Source of the DNA: an uncultured Puniceicoccaceae bacterium | GTDB taxonomy: Bacteria; Verrucomicrobiota; Verrucomicrobiia; Opitutales; Oceanipulchritudinaceae | Assembly: GCA_963933835.1 (NCBI GenBank) | Contig: CAWVVV010000001.1 | Coordinates: forward strand, 448,001-512,000 | Reading direction: 5' to 3' | Length of the DNA: 64,000 nucleotides | Shown here: positions 1,674 to 10,063 of the stretch, in pieces | Layout: each line of letters starts with the position of its first letter | How positions within the stretch are numbered: position 1 is the first letter of the stretch | Program-made: the position numbers and the translations under genes | Notes under the pieces: generated by a model | The model's input: the letters and a program-made list of their open reading frames with translations, nothing else | What the model was told of the DNA's origin: nothing | Databases searched by the model: none

Positions 1674-2046
1674 AATCCCAGAGTGCGATTCTCAAGAGCC
1701 ATAACCACCCGGCGAGAAATGCGAGGCCTCCGATCGGGGTGATCGCGCCCAGCCACCCGATGCCAGTGAGGGAGAGGATATAGAGGGAACCTGAGAATAT
1801 CACTATCCCCACGATCCACGCATGACGCGTGAAGCGCACTAGGCTAGCTCGGACACCCAAGCCACCCAGTGCAAGCAGTCCCACGGAATGAATCAGGTGG
1901 TAGAGCACCGCGGTCTCCCACGTATCAACGCGGTCCATTGCGATCAGGCGATCTTCGAATAGATGGGCTCCAAATGCACCGATTGCGACCCCTAGAAAGC
2001 CAAGGATCGCAGCCGCTCGAATCGATTCATTAACGTCATTTCGCAT
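1672..2046 (-). CDS. DUF423 (YgdD/TMEM256-like) small membrane protein
   Basis: Motifs GAFGAH, WETAVLYHLIH, IFSGSLY and LGAITPIGG. Start placed at ATG 2046, which overlaps the upstream A2M stop. Confidence 0.9.
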   Translation of the reverse strand: MRNDVNESIRAAAILGFLGVAIGAFGAHLFEDRLIAMDRVDTWETAVLYHLIHSVGLLALGGLGVRASLVRFTRHAWIVGIVIFSGSLYILSLTGIGWLGAITPIGGLAFLAGWLWLLRIALWD

Positions 2047-5000
2047 CCTTAACCTCCAATCTCCATTCATCAGTATTTCCAAATACGTGATTGAGATACA
2101 TCGGTTCGACGATGGCTGGTTGTGCCTGAAAACGACCAGGGGATTCTGCCCTGAGTCTGTAGCGAATTTCCCATACACCCTCCGGCAGTCGGTCAAAAAG
2201 AAGGCCGACATGCTTATCTCTGAGCTCCAAGTATCCAGAGATTTGTTCGAGGTTCGGCGCTGGATTAACCGTATCAGCAACACGACGGGCAATCGCACTT
2301 GGCCCGCTCAATACCTGAACGGCCTCAAATCCAGCCGGCTTAGGATCCTCGATCAAAACGTAGCTCATGTCCCGCGGACATTCGATGCGCAGGACCACTT
2401 CGATCCGATCACCAGAATTCACGAATGCTTTATCATCGAGCGGCGTCATAATCTCACTGACACCTTGTAGAAGAGTTGGGACGGGCTTGAGATGAACATA
2501 GGAACGCGAGATAGAAATATCACTTGAGCCAGCATTCAAACGCTCTGATTGGTCATAAAACTCCGCGTAGAGCTCAAAATTAAACCCAAGTCTAGAATCC
2601 GAACGTTTGATCGAAATCACATCTTCAGGGTTGATTGACGCTGTATCCAAATCTGCCACCGCGGGCACCCAATCCTTCGAAGTCAGCTCGATCGTGGTGT
2701 CACCGGACGTCGCCGAATAGACAACCGCCTTCTGATCATCCTCCGCTTGGCGTAAGTAGTTGGAAATAGCGATCACAGCCAATCCCGTAGAGCGCGTATT
2801 TTGCCAATGCGTACCTGTCCTGTTACGCGCTAACCAAGTAACGGCAGGCTCAATCAAGCGGCTGCGTTGATCAATTTCGAGTAAGGCCGAAAGCACCCAT
2901 GCGGTTGATTCCACCGCTCCTTCGCTCCAATGATAGTAGCCCACTTGTCGGCCCCAGAAGGCCGTCGGCAAGGTCAACGGATGACCCTGTGCGTCTTTGC
3001 TGCCGCTTAAATTACCTGAGCTTTCTTGCACCGTATTCTCCAGATTACGGATGATCAATTCAGCGTCTTCATCGAAACCAAAGTAGTGCGCGCTCAAGGC
3101 AAGCATCGCGAGATTCATTGGCTTAAGCGTACCACGCCTAGACATCAGGTTGAGAAAGCTCCGAGCCTCCATCCGGGAAGGGCGCCCCACTCCGTGGCCA
3201 CGGTAGCGGCTCGACAATGCGAGCAGGACCCAGGATTCACGCGAGGGTGATAACTCGGATTCGATGAGCTGGCGTTCCAGCCAGTCGCGCGCTGCACCCA
3301 TATCAATCGATTCCAAATCGACGTCCATTTCCTCTGCTAGGGTGAGTGACCAGACCGCGTAGGCTGTCATGAAAAGATCACTACGCCCGCCCGGCATCCA
3401 TGGCCAACTGCCGTCTGCCAGCTGAAGTTCTTCCATTCGAGTAATACCATCAGCAATAACTTCTTCGAGAAGATCACGAAAATCTTCTCGCCCACCAACG
3501 GCTTCATTGGAAAGCTCTCCGAAGATAAAACTATCGATCTCTTCTAGATCAAGCGCGAGCTGTTCTGCAGCTCCCATCACCGCCACAGAAGGCAGGAAGC
3601 GACTGAGCGTCTGCTCGGTGCAGCCATAAGGAAATTCGATCAAATACGGCAACGCGCCAAGCATCTGAGTCGCATATGTCGTCGAGAGTTTAAGCGTCAC
3701 TTGTGTATCTTTGCGCTCCTCCGAGGCGGGCAGATCTAGCTTCAGCTCTACGTTGTCTTCACTCGTGCGACCAACAAGACCCACCGTCCGATTCATCCCA
3801 CTCGGGATGATTTCGATCATGCGCTCTACGCCGTCTGAGTGATTGTGTGAGATGGCTCCAAGGCTGAGTTCAGCCTGACCCACTGTTTTTGCCTCTACTT
3901 CCCACTCAGCTCGAAAAAGCCCTCCAGCGGGCACCCGCTTGCGAAGGATCTCAGCACCCTCTAATTCAAGAATCTCGTCCACTTCAAAAGCCGCCGTGAC
4001 GTCGATCGGGCTCTCGGTGTTGTTCTGAATGATGCCACTGAGCTTCGCGACATCCCCTTCAACAAGGAAGCGCGGGGTCTGCATCCGAGCAACGAGCGGC
4101 AGGCGCGTTGTCGTGCGCAAACTAGTTTCACCGACACGGGTATCTCCTGTGATCGCGAGTGCTTGAAGCCTCCACGCAGTGAGGTTGTCTGGAAATTCGA
4201 GCTCAACGGTCGCTTTACCCTCCGCATCGGTCTGCACACGAGGAAGCCAAGCTAGGGTCGAGCGGAAGTCGCTGCGAAGGGACATTTTTGATATGTCCAA
4301 TTCCAGTAGAAACTCATTGTCAATTGCAGCGGCCGATAATGGCAAATCCCTCAAGGACGTGTTCAAACTAGTTCCTGAAATAGAATTAATAGAGCGATAC
4401 CCGACATCGTCGGATAAATCTACAGTGAATGGTGACAACTCGATTATTTCATCCTGCGATTCGAACGGAGAAGACTCCGCAGACTGTTCCAGCGGCTGAA
4501 AGAATGGCTGGTTCCTTAAAGAACTGCGCGAACCAAAGTCATGCGTGTTCTTATCCCCGTAGAAAGCTTCGAGAACTGAAAGCCTCGAGGTGTCGACGAG
4601 CGAATAGAGCGCTTCGTCAGATGCGAAAAAAGTCAGCTCGGTTTCAACTGGGGTTCCATCCGCATCGAGCACGAGCAAATCTACCGATGCCATGTCTCCT
4701 GGCTCATAGCCATCCTGATCAGGTGAGATTAAGACATCGAGATATTGCTCACTCGGCGGGACTTCTAATTCGATTGAATCAGTCAGGTGAGCTTCATTTG
4801 AGATGAGCGAAACATCGACGAAGGCATTTGGGAAAAATTCGGGCGATGGCAGGATTGTAATCAACTTACTACTACCATCGAGACGAATAACTCGGTGCTC
4901 GATAAGTGCGTCTGCGCTGATCGTTAACAAGGCCCAGCGATTCTGAGCCGGAGCGGCGATCATGAGCGGGATCGGAGTCCCAACTTCAAATGGCCCATTA

Positions 5001-7765
5001 TTTGCGACAAGCTGAACCCCACCGGGACGGTAGCCCAGCTCTGTAACCGCTTTGTCGCTGACCCAGAGTGGCACCTCCGCCGTAACTGGCCGCCCACGCT
5101 CTCCTCGGCTGATCCACTCGAAAACGTAGTAGCCCGTCTCGGGAGGACTAAAGACGTAGTGGGCGAAGCCCTCGGCATTCGTCACGAGTGCCTCACGCAC
5201 AATTTCTTCGGTTACAAAGCCAGACTCCAGAAGGCGGTAATCACTCTGAGCGGCATTTATGATAGAGCGGTCAGGCAAGGTGCGGTAGGTCTCCCCACTG
5301 ATTTCTGAGCCCCTTTTGCGATGCACGTAGACTTCACGCCATTGCTCCCGAGTCACCCGCAAGGTGCCGTCATCGACGACGGGCTGTTCATTCGCATCTT
5401 GTAGTGAAATTTTAACGCGCCCGCTATCGCCGGGGGCAAGTAATCTACGATCTAAGGTCAGCTCAGAAAAATACGCCTGCTGCGTTACATGGACACTCGC
5501 CGCCGTTACCGTTTCACGCCGTGACAAGTCACGCACTCGCGCTTCAAAGGCGTAGGTGTAATCCTGATCAGCGTCTCTAAGCGTGCGATAGGAGAAGGTT
5601 GCATGGCCACGTGCGTCTGTCGTGAGGTTGATGCGCTCAAGCTCTTCGGACTCGTATGACGGGTAGAAGTCCCTTCTCCTCAGGTCCAGATCTGCATAAC
5701 CATCGTAGGGCACAATACTCCAAGACTGATACGGCGTCCGCGTGACAATGATTTCAACGGTCGCATCTTCAACCGCTCCTCCCGCGTAGTAGTTCACGTT
5801 CAGAGTCCCCTCGAGTTCATCTCCTGGATAAATCGGAGCGCTCGAACCAAAGCTTATCTTCGCTTCGATGTCTGGCGTGCGATACTCTTCAACATAGAGG
5901 GCAAAGTTGTCGCTGTCCCAATACTCCAATGCATCTCTTTCGACGCTAAACCCGTATTCTCCGAGCGGAGCATCCGAGGGAAGCTCAAAATCGAGGACAA
6001 AACTCCCACTCGAATTCATCTCAAGGGAACCCTCTGTTATATAGTCACCGCCCCAAGATCCAAATTCGTATTTAAAATCTTCCGACAGGTCCGGAAGCGA
6101 CCACTGATTGTCCGTCTTCTCTCTCAACCAGCCAACGAGGCGAACAGTATCTCCCGGCCGATAAATCGAACGGCCAGTGACTAGATAGACCATCCTTTCG
6201 CTAGTGTCGCGAGTGCCTGACCACGAATTATTGACGAGCGCTGTAGCGCCTTCGCCAAAACTACTCGAAGCCAACAAGACCCGCTGCACACTCCCACGCA
6301 AATGGTCGGGGACAGTGTAGCTCCAGAGACCCTCGTCATCCGTCGTGCCCGAAAGCTGAACTTTGACAGGATCCTTTCCGCGCCCATCGGGCCACGCCTT
6401 GAGCTCAAGGGAAAGATCTACATTGGGGCGCGGTTCGCCATCATCGGCGTCGGCGAGATAGAAGAGAATCTCATCGCCTACTTCGTGACTCAAAATGACA
6501 AGGTCGGTCACATAGAGCGGAGCGAAAGCGACTGTCTCGCCACTCGTGGCCACAACAACATATGCCCCGGGTTCAAGCGATTGCTCGAGACGCACGCGAT
6601 CCAGAACAGGATAATGCGGAAAAGCTGGGAGTGCCTGCAAATTACTCAGGCTACTCGACGGCACGAGTAGATCCAGCGGCGGAGGCACCTCACCTGCTTT
6701 CCCACTATGGAGCACATGGCTGAGGGGGTCGACGCGGTAGACTTCGACCGATGGGGCCTCGATGTTTCTCCAGCGCACTGCGAATTGAACCTCGGCCTCA
6801 AGCCGGAAGGCATGGCTGACAAGGACCTTCAAATCGGGCGTCTCAAGACGTTCGATCGCCCGCTTAGCACGATCACGGAAATGGCTCCATTCCTCCCTCT
6901 TGGTCTCAAGGAGCTTTTCATAAGCCAGCTTAGCGTCGATGTAGTCAGGCTTAAAGATGAGTTGGCCGACGTCGTTATACTCCGACATGCCGTAGCGCTC
7001 TGACCACTGCCCATGTTCCCAGAGAGCCAGAGCATAGGTCGACGTCTTCGACCCAGCCGCGACCGCCCGAGCAAGGGCATCGCCTTGGCGGATACGTATC
7101 TCAGGGGCGTTCTCCATCGATTGCCGTGCGTAGGCGTGAGCTAACTCGAGATTGAAATAGGCACTGTCTTCGTCGCTCTGTGCGATGTGCACCGCTTGAC
7201 GCAAGACGCCGAGCGCGTGATCTGTGTTGCTGTAAGTTCGACCCAGTTTGCGAACGAGACGCAGGTATTCCGGCCTCGCACGCACCAGATCGGTCGACGA
7301 TGCCCAGTATTCGAGCAACTCGTCGAAGAGCGTCTGCCCGTCGTCCGTTCGAGAAAGGTAGGTCGCGGCATTCTCGTAGAGGCTCTGCCAAAAAGCGTCC
7401 TTCGGTCTATCTTGACGAATTTCCCGCGCTGCCGAGAAGACGGCCTCACTTAACTCAGAGAGAATGCCCTCTTCAGCCTCGTCCCAGGTGCGATTCTGAA
7501 GCCGCAGTTGGTAAGTGGTCAGGCGGTCGTAAGCCTGCGCTTGCAAGCGATCGAGCGGAGTCGCCCGCGCATCGACAGCAAGCTCAACAAAGATCGGCTG
7601 AGCGATGGCAAACGAACCTTCCTCAAACGCAGCCATGGCCTCTTCGAAACGGGTCGGGGTCGACCCCCGTTCGGCGGCTTCTTGGGCGCTGAGCGGTGCA
7701 AGAAGCACGCTAAGCAGGCAAAAGACGGTGTAGACTAGGCGGGGAGGGAGTGGGAGCGCACGCAT
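2036..7765 (-). CDS. Bacterial alpha-2-macroglobulin (MG2/A2M) family protein with intact thioester motif
   Basis: 1909 aa with signal peptide; MG-domain motifs (RSIYRPGDTV, VEEYRTP, FPDNLTAWRL, PRFLVEGD); thioester PYGCTEQT at 3611-3622; C-terminal YRLRAESPGRF. Confidence 0.92.
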   Translation of the reverse strand: MRALPLPPRLVYTVFCLLSVLLAPLSAQEAAERGSTPTRFEEAMAAFEEGSFAIAQPIFVELAVDARATPLDRLQAQAYDRLTTYQLRLQNRTWDEAEEGILSELSEAVFSAAREIRQDRPKDAFWQSLYENAATYLSRTDDGQTLFDELLEYWASSTDLVRARPEYLRLVRKLGRTYSNTDHALGVLRQAVHIAQSDEDSAYFNLELAHAYARQSMENAPEIRIRQGDALARAVAAGSKTSTYALALWEHGQWSERYGMSEYNDVGQLIFKPDYIDAKLAYEKLLETKREEWSHFRDRAKRAIERLETPDLKVLVSHAFRLEAEVQFAVRWRNIEAPSVEVYRVDPLSHVLHSGKAGEVPPPLDLLVPSSSLSNLQALPAFPHYPVLDRVRLEQSLEPGAYVVVATSGETVAFAPLYVTDLVILSHEVGDEILFYLADADDGEPRPNVDLSLELKAWPDGRGKDPVKVQLSGTTDDEGLWSYTVPDHLRGSVQRVLLASSSFGEGATALVNNSWSGTRDTSERMVYLVTGRSIYRPGDTVRLVGWLREKTDNQWSLPDLSEDFKYEFGSWGGDYITEGSLEMNSSGSFVLDFELPSDAPLGEYGFSVERDALEYWDSDNFALYVEEYRTPDIEAKISFGSSAPIYPGDELEGTLNVNYYAGGAVEDATVEIIVTRTPYQSWSIVPYDGYADLDLRRRDFYPSYESEELERINLTTDARGHATFSYRTLRDADQDYTYAFEARVRDLSRRETVTAASVHVTQQAYFSELTLDRRLLAPGDSGRVKISLQDANEQPVVDDGTLRVTREQWREVYVHRKRGSEISGETYRTLPDRSIINAAQSDYRLLESGFVTEEIVREALVTNAEGFAHYVFSPPETGYYVFEWISRGERGRPVTAEVPLWVSDKAVTELGYRPGGVQLVANNGPFEVGTPIPLMIAAPAQNRWALLTISADALIEHRVIRLDGSSKLITILPSPEFFPNAFVDVSLISNEAHLTDSIELEVPPSEQYLDVLISPDQDGYEPGDMASVDLLVLDADGTPVETELTFFASDEALYSLVDTSRLSVLEAFYGDKNTHDFGSRSSLRNQPFFQPLEQSAESSPFESQDEIIELSPFTVDLSDDVGYRSINSISGTSLNTSLRDLPLSAAAIDNEFLLELDISKMSLRSDFRSTLAWLPRVQTDAEGKATVELEFPDNLTAWRLQALAITGDTRVGETSLRTTTRLPLVARMQTPRFLVEGDVAKLSGIIQNNTESPIDVTAAFEVDEILELEGAEILRKRVPAGGLFRAEWEVEAKTVGQAELSLGAISHNHSDGVERMIEIIPSGMNRTVGLVGRTSEDNVELKLDLPASEERKDTQVTLKLSTTYATQMLGALPYLIEFPYGCTEQTLSRFLPSVAVMGAAEQLALDLEEIDSFIFGELSNEAVGGREDFRDLLEEVIADGITRMEELQLADGSWPWMPGGRSDLFMTAYAVWSLTLAEEMDVDLESIDMGAARDWLERQLIESELSPSRESWVLLALSSRYRGHGVGRPSRMEARSFLNLMSRRGTLKPMNLAMLALSAHYFGFDEDAELIIRNLENTVQESSGNLSGSKDAQGHPLTLPTAFWGRQVGYYHWSEGAVESTAWVLSALLEIDQRSRLIEPAVTWLARNRTGTHWQNTRSTGLAVIAISNYLRQAEDDQKAVVYSATSGDTTIELTSKDWVPAVADLDTASINPEDVISIKRSDSRLGFNFELYAEFYDQSERLNAGSSDISISRSYVHLKPVPTLLQGVSEIMTPLDDKAFVNSGDRIEVVLRIECPRDMSYVLIEDPKPAGFEAVQVLSGPSAIARRVADTVNPAPNLEQISGYLELRDKHVGLLFDRLPEGVWEIRYRLRAESPGRFQAQPAIVEPMYLNHVFGNTDEWRLEVKDAK

Positions 7766-7921: not shown

Positions 7922-10063
7922 ATGCGCCTCAGTTACTTCACATCCTTTTGCCTCTTTATCACTCTCAGCCTGCAGAGCCTCAACGCTGCGCCCGTGCGTG
8001 ACATTCACGTCGAGGCCGAGCTTATCGCCCAAAATTTGAGCATCCAGCCCGGTGAAACCTTTACCGTCGGCCTACGGCTCGATCACGACGAACACTGGCA
8101 TACCTACTGGAAGTCCTCCGCCACGGGCTACGCGACTTCGGTCGAATGGGATCTTCCAGAGGGGTTCACTGCCAGCGATATTCAATGGCCGACACCCAAA
8201 CCCTATGCGCTGGGCGACTTCGTCGATTTTGTCTTCGAGGGCGAAATCATCCTCGAATTTGAGCTGACCGCCCCTGAAACCATCGCAGCTGGCGATCAAA
8301 TCACTTTAAACGCCTCCGCCGAATGGCTCATGTGCAAAGACACCTGCATACTAGGGAGCGCCGAGTTGAGCCTGAGTTTGCCGGTTTCGGATGATGCTTC
8401 AGCCCCCGACGCCCAATGGGCAGCACTCTTTGCTAAGAATGCTTCTAAAATGCCCCTCGCAGAGACCCCCTACTCGGCAACGGCATGGACGGAGGGCAAT
8501 AAAGTCTACCTCGCGGTGAGCGGTGATGAAGCCGTCCCAAGCGACCTCTACTTCTTCGACGATCAAATTTTCCTCAAACCTGTCGTCACGCAGCCTTCGC
8601 CAACACTCTCTGATGGCACTGTCGTGATTGAACTCGAAATCAATCCCGATGGCAGCGGCGAAGCTGACAGCCTGACCGGTGTGCTTTCGACGAGCGGCAG
8701 CTGGATAGCTGGCGCGCAACAAGCCGGATGGGCCCTCGATGTCGCGTGGGGTGAGCCGGTTAAAGCTGCGGTCACAAATGAAAGCGGCTCCGCAGACGAA
8801 GAGCCCACCAGCCTCCTCGGAATCATCGCCTTTGCTTTTATTGGCGGCCTCATTCTCAATCTCATGCCCTGTGTTTTTCCGGTTATCGGGATCAAGATCA
8901 TGGGCTTCGTTAATCAAGCGGGCGAAGATAAGAAAAAGATCGTCCTACACGGGCTTACCTTCACCGCAGGCGTGCTGATTTCGTTTTGGCTCCTCGCCGG
9001 CCTCCTCCTCATTTTGCGGAGCGGCGGCAACCAAGTTGGTTGGGGTTTCCAGCTCCAAAATCCAGCCTTCGTCTTTCTCCTCACTGCCTTCCTTTTTGCC
9101 TTCGGCCTGAACATGAGCGGTCTCTTCGAGATCGGAACCTCAGCAATCGGTGTCGGCAGCGGTCTGACTGCGAAATCCGGCCTCAGCGGCTCCTTCTTTT
9201 CTGGAGTCCTCGCCACCGTCGTAGCAACTCCGTGCGCCGCCCCATTCCTCGCTCCCGCTTTGGGCGTGGCACTCACGATTCCGCCCCTGCCCTCCCTGGT
9301 CCTATTCACCGCGATTGGACTCGGGCTCTCGACCCCCTACCTTCTGCTTTCGGCCTTCCCAAGTTTGATCAACAAGCTTCCGCGCCCCGGGCCATGGATG
9401 GAAACCTTCAAACAAGGCATGGCCTTCCTCCTTTATGCCACCGCTGGCTACCTCCTCTGGGTGCTCGTCGGGCAAATGGTCGAGGAACAAGGCTACGCCG
9501 TCGATGCCCTCCTCTGGTCGTTCTTCGCCCTCGTCCTCCTCGCCGTTGCGCTCTGGGTCTATGGCCGCTGGTGTGCGCCACATATGCCAAAGAAGACCCG
9601 CCGCATCGGCCTAGCTGTAGCGATCCTCGTCGGGCTCGGCGGGCTAGCCCTCGGGTATCCAAAGCAGGCCTACAACCCTGCCGCCTTAGCCGCAACCGAT
9701 GCCCCACCCGTGCAATGGGAAAAATGGGCTCCTGGCAAAGCCGAGGCACTCGCCGCTGACGGAAAGGTCGTCTACGTCGACTTCACCGCCCGCTGGTGCA
9801 CCACCTGTCAGGTAAACAAGAAAGCTGTCTTTAGTTCCGCCGAGGTCCGCCGCTTCTTCGCTGAAAACGACGTCGTCGCCCTCAAAGCCGACTGGACAAG
9901 CAAAGACGCTACCATCGCCCAAGCCATCGAGTCCTACGGGCGCGCGGCCGTGCCGCTAAATCTCATCTTCAGTCCTTCCCTCGAAGAGGAGATTCAACTC
10001 CCCGAGCTCCTCACGCCAGGTGTTGTCCTGAATGCGCTGGAGAGAGCGAAGAGCCAACCCTAG
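7922..10063 (+). CDS. dsbD: Protein-disulfide reductase DsbD family (N-terminal domain, TM domain, thioredoxin domain)
   Basis: WHTYWK; WLMCKDTC; TM cysteines in NLMPCVFP and TPCAAP; C-terminal DFTARWCTTC. Confidence 0.88.
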   Translation: MRLSYFTSFCLFITLSLQSLNAAPVRDIHVEAELIAQNLSIQPGETFTVGLRLDHDEHWHTYWKSSATGYATSVEWDLPEGFTASDIQWPTPKPYALGDFVDFVFEGEIILEFELTAPETIAAGDQITLNASAEWLMCKDTCILGSAELSLSLPVSDDASAPDAQWAALFAKNASKMPLAETPYSATAWTEGNKVYLAVSGDEAVPSDLYFFDDQIFLKPVVTQPSPTLSDGTVVIELEINPDGSGEADSLTGVLSTSGSWIAGAQQAGWALDVAWGEPVKAAVTNESGSADEEPTSLLGIIAFAFIGGLILNLMPCVFPVIGIKIMGFVNQAGEDKKKIVLHGLTFTAGVLISFWLLAGLLLILRSGGNQVGWGFQLQNPAFVFLLTAFLFAFGLNMSGLFEIGTSAIGVGSGLTAKSGLSGSFFSGVLATVVATPCAAPFLAPALGVALTIPPLPSLVLFTAIGLGLSTPYLLLSAFPSLINKLPRPGPWMETFKQGMAFLLYATAGYLLWVLVGQMVEEQGYAVDALLWSFFALVLLAVALWVYGRWCAPHMPKKTRRIGLAVAILVGLGGLALGYPKQAYNPAALAATDAPPVQWEKWAPGKAEALAADGKVVYVDFTARWCTTCQVNKKAVFSSAEVRRFFAENDVVALKADWTSKDATIAQAIESYGRAAVPLNLIFSPSLEEEIQLPELLTPGVVLNALERAKSQP

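Follow-up and report, generated by a model that had tools for sequence, protein, structure and literature searches.

We analysed a 64,000-nucleotide stretch of DNA from an uncultured Puniceicoccaceae bacterium (the window; contig CAWVVV010000001.1 of assembly GCA_963933835.1, positions 448,001 to 512,000 of the forward strand), which encodes an alpha-2-macroglobulin (A2M), P0001. A segment in the bait of this protein, as judged from its homology, is derived from the N-terminus of TonB-dependent receptors of the Opitutales/Puniceicoccaceae type. A2Ms are thought to be triggered only by a protease cutting the bait, and TonB boxes are known from receptors and imported toxins. We tentatively read the segment, hereafter the cassette, as a motif through which the trap may dock to TonB.

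A receptor-derived cassette in the bait loop

P0001 is a protein of 1909 aa, translated from a single open reading frame (ORF) on the minus strand at 2036..7765 of the window (ORF list and translation). Its layout runs from a signal peptide and a helical N-terminal region through MG2, the bait-region domain, the A2M domain and the thioester domain to bMG10. Pfam placed these domains, all above the cut-off, at residues 526-611 (MG2), 918-1056 (A2M_BRD), 1170-1257 (A2M), 1369-1496 (TED, TED_complement) and 1775-1890 (bMG10). The thioester motif CTEQ was read in the translation at aa 1382-1385 (3611..3622, minus strand), and C1382, E1384 and Q1385 are invariant in the 10 rows of alignment A2. R1164, F1167 and W1173 are likewise invariant in this alignment; they belong to LRSDFRSTLAW (aa 1163-1173; 4247..4279, minus strand), which the alignments identify as the conserved start of the post-bait domain. 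We observed that phmmer aligned this motif to the post-bait residues (717 onward) of the solved A2M 7s62, and also to RSYFPESWLW of C5, the stretch after the C5a domain. By eye, the N-terminus carries a signal peptide ending ...APLSAQE, and the sole cysteine there, C16, does not read as part of a lipobox. P0001 is predicted to be an exported thioester A2M, that is, a protease trap of the cell envelope.

The original prediction for this DNA had singled out 54 residues at 4292..4453 as a TonB-box- and plug-like segment within the bait. These residues proved to be the exact minus-strand translation of that interval, aa 1105-1158 of the 1909-aa ORF. They end five residues upstream of LRSDFRSTLAW and lie within the 113-aa gap that, in Pfam, separates A2M_BRD (to 1056) and the A2M domain (from 1170). 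We modelled aa 880-1320 with AlphaFold2 using a 30-row alignment (mean pLDDT 80.3). In this model, aa 1086-1161 (model residues 207-220 and 222-282) have a pLDDT below 50 and are without secondary structure, and the beta-sandwich flanks are at about 90. This disordered bait loop, between A2M_BRD and A2M, corresponds to 4283..4510 on the minus strand. The best structural matches of the model by Foldseek were 5a42 (ECAM; E 2.6e-19), 4u48 (Salmonella A2M; E 1.3e-18) and 4ziq (E 2.9e-17), with CD109 also among them. The domain gap, the post-bait motif and the low-pLDDT stretch between beta-sandwich domains together assign the cassette to the bait loop, outside the MG domains. The expectation that the segment belongs to a disordered bait rather than to a structured MG domain was thus borne out by the Pfam gap, the alignment with 7s62 and C5 and the AlphaFold2 pLDDT.

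A profile of 67 receptor N-termini delimits the whole cassette as aa 1094-1162 (4280..4486, minus strand), which encloses 4292-4453. Within it, the TonB-box-like core ELSPFTV (aa 1109-1115; 4421..4441, minus strand), recognised by its conservation, has acidic residues before it. Further downstream, aa 1140-1153 (4307..4348, minus strand) match the start of Plug, that is, the first plug strand, and were aligned to receptor residues ~75-89.

Next, we examined the base composition of the cassette. It had been noted that the DNA of the segment looks AT-richer than its flanks, and this held: its GC is 0.407 against 0.541 for the whole gene, the lowest among 309 sliding 54-codon windows. The GC of third codon positions (GC3) in the cassette is 0.426, within the lowest 5% of 54-codon windows in the gene. 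Dips to 0.43-0.47 occur elsewhere in the A2M gene too (150-base windows), and part of the dip in the cassette is an effect of amino-acid make-up, because the GC of first and second codon positions is low as well. The low GC and GC3 would fit a later refresh of the cassette from a receptor gene, of which no donor was found in the searches of the genome described below.

To the family models the segment is silent. At E <= 10, neither the 113-aa nor the 54-aa segment matched any Pfam family, Plug (PF07715) included, and NCBIfam returned nothing meaningful for the segment by itself; the Plug model does not reach so short a piece. Sequence searches were more informative. With the 113-aa query against 5.8 billion proteins (199-2000 aa), 6 of 409 candidates matched: one was P0001, and the other five, 960-1141 aa long, have a Plug domain (E 1e-10 to 6e-7). 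By BLASTP the match covers about residues 20-97 of these five proteins, with 58% identity over 57 aa to residues 33-89 of P0004. Since the matched span is ~20-97 and the Pfam Plug domain begins at residues 65-75 in the five receptors, the match runs from the mature N-terminus over the presumed TonB box and the linker into the first residues of the plug. The best-matching receptors carry the source names of Opitutaceae (Opitutaceae bacterium) and Puniceicoccaceae TonB-dependent receptors. The proposed kinship with receptor N-termini was therefore upheld, as segment searches returned verrucomicrobial receptor N-termini at 58-65% identity over 48-57 aa (E 1e-10).

A phmmer search of 1.84 billion representatives gave 760 matches at E <= 0.001, and in 146 of the best 150 hits, counted from the table, the match starts at or before residue 150. 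Eleven of the 14 hits scanned with Pfam are ordinary Plug proteins. Another hit, P0011, is a fragment of an A2M (919 aa) whose bait contains the match. A cassette-only search among proteins of 1049-3341 aa returned seven Plug proteins and no further A2M; its best match was to residues 42-89 of the receptor P0283 (65% over 48 aa), whose source name is Puniceicoccaceae bacterium K14. Two other candidates were rejected. P0031, considered as a soluble cassette protein, is receptor-like: a VIT+VWA extension precedes the box, the Plug is partial and the C-terminal part is long; this 1321-aa metagenome protein ends in Phe and is apparently a receptor with an N-terminal VIT-VWA extension of ~700 aa. 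P0100, considered as a cassette bearer, is a chance low-complexity match.

We then scored the cassette with the receptor profile, built from the 67 receptor N-termini and 80 positions long. hmmsearch gave 82.0 bits (domain E 1.6e-25) over profile positions 4-72 of 80, which is within the range of real receptors. The modules of the cassette also follow one another in the same order as in receptors: an acidic run, ELSPFTV (which we take, from its position and from the consensus of TonB boxes, to be the putative TonB-box equivalent), a linker of the GY...SGT type and the plug's first strand.

Retention and origins of the cassette among related A2Ms

Among 41 related genomes, 26 contain A2M relatives, as do 27 of 37 family genomes (the window's own genome being counted in both). 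The bait alignments and extracts show a loop that cannot otherwise be aligned; within it [LM]S[PA]F.[VL] recurs in place, with acidic residues before and GY after. When a cassette was called at domain E < 0.01, the receptor profile matched 11 distinct A2Ms among 159 sequences (duplicates included), and all 11 matches lie 1-45 residues upstream of the post-bait motif (that of P0203 was read from the bait extract). The profile scores were 82 bits for P0001 of the window, 73 for P0203, 54 for L035, 42 for P0011, 26 each for L015 and L018, 22 for L021, 21 for P0161, 20 for L050, 11 for L011 and 9.5 for P0159. In P0162 (= L009) the motif is visible and the profile score is below significance. L035 is a second A2M paralogue of a family member (G012:C20) with a long cassette, and one in-frame TGA lies within its genome-search match.

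The conservation of LSPFxV in orthologue baits, which had been raised with the original prediction, is thus seen in 11 distinct A2Ms with the cassette, which is kept in several genera, and the box is retained in 9 of the 14 complete sequences of the window's own clade. L013, which stops at a contig end, was left out of the complete-sequence count.

We compared the retention of individual residues between the receptors and the A2M cassettes. L20 is kept in 63/67 receptors and 10/11 A2M cassettes, S21 in 64/67 and 11/11, P22 in 61/67 and 9/11, F23 in 67/67 and 11/11, and V25 in 64/67 and 8/11. G32 (67/67 and 9/9) and Y33 (65/67 and 9/9) are equally well kept, whereas N45 is present in 62/67 receptors and in just 1/8 A2M cassettes. 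The box and GY are therefore the best-kept part of the A2M cassettes, whose length varies among bearers; the plug strand could be aligned in just 3 of 11 (P0001, P0203 and L035). That box and GY are kept while equally conserved receptor positions drift fits a pattern of selection on the part that would contact TonB. The window cassette is 56% identical to receptors against 50% to other A2M cassettes, a comparison that is biased because the receptor set was picked for its likeness to the window.

As a control, we scanned 80 A2M loci of other taxa (Acidobacteriota, Omnitrophota, Planctomycetota and other Verrucomicrobiota). No profile match was seen in 78 of them, and the two matching loci are already-known members of the window's family. 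The simple motif was found in 0 of 72 non-family baits with the anchor. Five A2Ms (P0176, P0197, P0248, P0256 and P0268) have carboxypeptidase-regulatory-like domains, which lie near the N-terminus (aa 30-290) and outside the bait.

The number of origins was addressed with trees of the protein part after the bait. FastTree and the free IQ-TREE searches (lnL -45902.67) gave high support to L021 and L035+P0203 branching away from the window's clade. A constrained search, in which the window's clade and L021 were held together, reached a better lnL of -45867.37, and because this tree scored higher, the free IQ-TREE searches must have been stuck in a local optimum. The free runs, quick and careful alike, ended 35 log-likelihood units worse, yet they gave 98-100% support for the misplaced branch; branch support on A2M tree data should be read with care. 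In a free search started from the constrained tree (intermediate tree), L021 stayed the clade's sister, and the two lay within Opitutales A2Ms that have no cassette.

With the poorer free tree as reference, approximately unbiased (AU) tests rejected no grouping of cassette bearers (p 0.90, 0.80 and 0.80), and the tree in which L035+P0203 joined the clade was ~14 log-likelihood units below the best tree. We had considered three independent origins, and rejected them as a demonstrated result in view of the higher-scoring constrained tree and of the AU tests. L035 and P0203 match each other best (33%) and share just ~27% identity with P0001; the pairwise identities between cassettes, and between cassettes and receptors, cover stretches too short for resolving origins. 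The trees make it likely that the cassette was acquired once, at the base of the family clade, and later eroded or was lost. In L035+P0203 it may have been acquired a second time or passed from one paralogue to another.

Possible roles of the cassette

The assembly (1.94 Mb in 10 contigs, 97% complete) is a small marine-type verrucomicrobial genome. Its receptors comprise six Plug matches and one Oar-like protein with a carboxypeptidase-regulatory-like domain and a barrel. The N-termini of these receptors carry short look-alike boxes, for example VVELESFDV and VIELEPFEV, and the long front end of the GY...SGT type is absent from all seven. When the receptor profile was run over 18,563 six-frame ORFs, only the A2M bait matched (82 bits, E 8e-24), so the bait is the genome's sole copy of the donor-type receptor front end; neither this search, with its next best match at E 0.29, nor a protein search of the genome found a second copy or donor. 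TonB_C has nine matches in the genome, seven of them above the Pfam cut-off, and sets of ExbB/ExbD adjoin TonB genes on contigs 6 and 3.

Some further features of the TonB_C matches were seen in passing. The seven above the cut-off equal the receptors in number (six Plug plus the Oar-like one). Several lie in long frames (318-449 aa), unlike classical TonB, with paralogous copies. Loci recorded outside the window are G000 C1:253081-254034, C8:1038-1589 and C2:195278-196624.

Our preferred reading, to which we give a little less than an even chance, is that the bait cassette is a TonB-docking motif. The known role of TonB boxes is to bind the TonB C-terminal domain by strand addition. If the box in P0001 still binds this domain in the same manner, the trap would be docked through its trigger loop to the inner-membrane Ton machinery, and a trap without an evident lipid anchor would thereby be placed where receptors meet TonB. 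A possible consequence is that cleavage of the bait would free the trap from TonB; alternatively, the pull of TonB on the loop might help to untether the bait, a step normally provided by cleavage. In one study (PMC4498604), bacterial A2Ms are described as anchored in the inner membrane and their activation as an untethering of the disordered bait. A grip by TonB on this loop might thus hold the trap in place, end when the bait is cut, or contribute force to the trigger.

The homology with receptors, the exact position in the bait, the recurrence at the same spot, the selective retention and the clade specificity all speak for the proposed docking. The Ton machinery of the genome, the look-alike boxes on its own receptors, the lack of an adjoining PBP1c gene and the lack of an evident lipobox would lend it further support.

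Several observations weigh against this role. The identity of ELSPFTV as a TonB box is putative, being based on its position and on the consensus of such boxes. The box is gone or degraded in P0160, a close relative, and in P0163, L010, L012 and L016, and because of these losses it is dispensable in some lineages. About 60 receptor-like residues, the plug strand included, are kept in the cassette although a box needs only ~7, which docking alone fails to explain. Moreover, the repeated placement in the bait, and not at a terminus, would fit a bait-related role at least equally well.

Such a role is offered by self-substrate mimicry, which we consider rather unlikely but which explains the location best. 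Here the bait would copy the exposed, disordered N-terminus of a receptor and lure periplasmic proteases that clip TonB boxes and disable nutrient uptake; such a protease would cleave the trap no less readily and so be caught, and binding of TonB would be incidental or absent. The cassette is located exactly at the protease-substrate site of the A2M, and mimicry directly accounts for its insertion in the bait alone. PMC4498604 describes baits as mostly disordered targets of cleavage. The cassette also spans the whole unstructured receptor N-terminus and not a minimal box of seven residues. However, the receptor type that would be mimicked is absent from the genome, and the bait has only the short box core in common with the genome's own seven receptors. 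It would also be odd, if a long recognition sequence mattered, that all but the box and GY have drifted in most cassettes. A protease directed at TonB boxes was not found in the literature searched, and we know of none.

A neutral graft is still less probable, and is disfavoured by the selective retention. By this account illegitimate recombination once brought part of a receptor gene into a hypervariable, insertion-tolerant loop, and this part now decays as a generic disordered bait. The cassette indeed differs in length between lineages and has been lost in five clade members, P0160 among them, and its GC, the lowest in the gene, would suit DNA that is foreign or was moved recently. The AU tests did not reject monophyly of the cassette-bearing A2Ms as a whole (p-AU 0.80-0.90), and one event could therefore explain every case. 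However, the box and GY are kept in 9/14 complete clade sequences across proteins that are 33-49% identical, inside a loop that cannot otherwise be aligned. The window copy also remains in the receptor-like range at 82 bits, while its sister P0159 keeps the box only.

The TonB-docking reading has a stronger form, which we regard as decidedly doubtful: TonB, powered by the proton-motive force, would pull the box, untether the bait and arm the thioester without proteolysis. If this were true, the trap could fire where bacteriocins or phage parts hijack TonB, or on the state of the envelope. Finally, we consider it highly improbable that P0001 uses the box and first plug strand to engage the barrel or plug of a receptor, be it through strand complementation or as the cargo of an exporter resembling a receptor, given that it is without a Plug or barrel domain (Pfam, whole protein), that no receptor gene lies beside the A2M gene and that the plug strand is missing from most cassettes, even though plug-strand residues are retained in P0001, P0203 and L035 and a receptor is reportedly needed for protein secretion in one paper.

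A conserved TonB box in the bait, if true, would be the first sequence-level link between a protease trap and the energy-transducing Ton machinery. It would suggest that the trap is positioned, baited or even fired in a way not studied so far, and the natural box-less variants are ready-made controls for testing the docking idea.

Neighbouring genes and comparison with known systems

The divergent neighbour of the A2M gene (7922..10063, plus strand; ORF list) encodes a protein of 713 aa that reads as DsbD-like, of the thiol:disulfide interchange type. Its relatives were found beside A2M in 8 of the 30 relatives' loci (tblastn; flanks of only ~1.5 kb). The PBP1c gene (pbpC) is the usual partner of A2M, although not a strict criterion. 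No such gene adjoins the A2M gene of the window, whose neighbours are the DsbD-like ORF and a small membrane protein. On the plus strand, 709-1587 of the window hold a multi-pass membrane ORF of 292 aa, a relative of which lies near A2M in a same-genus genome (L009; 57% over 243 aa). By its motif, it is presumably exosortase-like.

We compared P0001 with the type I bacterial A2Ms (ECAM/YfhM and SaA2M; 5a42, 4ziq, 4rtd and 4u48). It shares with them the order of MG, bait-region, thioester and MG10 domains, and, as in ECAM and SaA2M, a CxEQ thioester motif and a disordered bait before the conserved post-bait motif are present. The fold of aa 880-1320 matches 5a42 and 4u48, with only ~14% identity to the solved ECAM and SaA2M in the structural alignment. 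Unlike these proteins, P0001 holds a receptor-derived TonB-box cassette in its bait, its N-terminus is long and helical with no lipobox evident by eye, and the conserved neighbour of its gene is DsbD-like and not PBP1c.

With the Opitutales/Puniceicoccaceae receptors (for example P0004, P0283 and P0012), P0001 shares the cassette at 58-65% identity over 48-57 residues. In the receptors this stretch comes after the signal peptide and is continued by a complete Plug and a barrel, whereas in P0001 it is internal (aa 1094-1162); Pfam found no complete Plug and no 22-strand barrel family in the whole of P0001.

We found no paper linking alpha-2-macroglobulin and a TonB box in the full-text literature searched, which most subscription journals lie outside. 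In FecR, the force of TonB is coupled through the receptor FecA to a periplasmic cleavage cascade (PMC12036975). We rejected this study as a precedent, as its accessible part describes no TonB box in a non-receptor. P0001 thus appears, from its sequence, to be a type I bacterial A2M with a bait module not described in the literature searched.

Colicins and pyocins, imported bacteriocins, are non-receptor proteins in which a disordered stretch carries a TonB box. Their box is N-terminal and drives the import of a foreign toxin through a receptor, whereas the putative box of P0001 is internal and belongs to a resident protein that probably serves in envelope defence.

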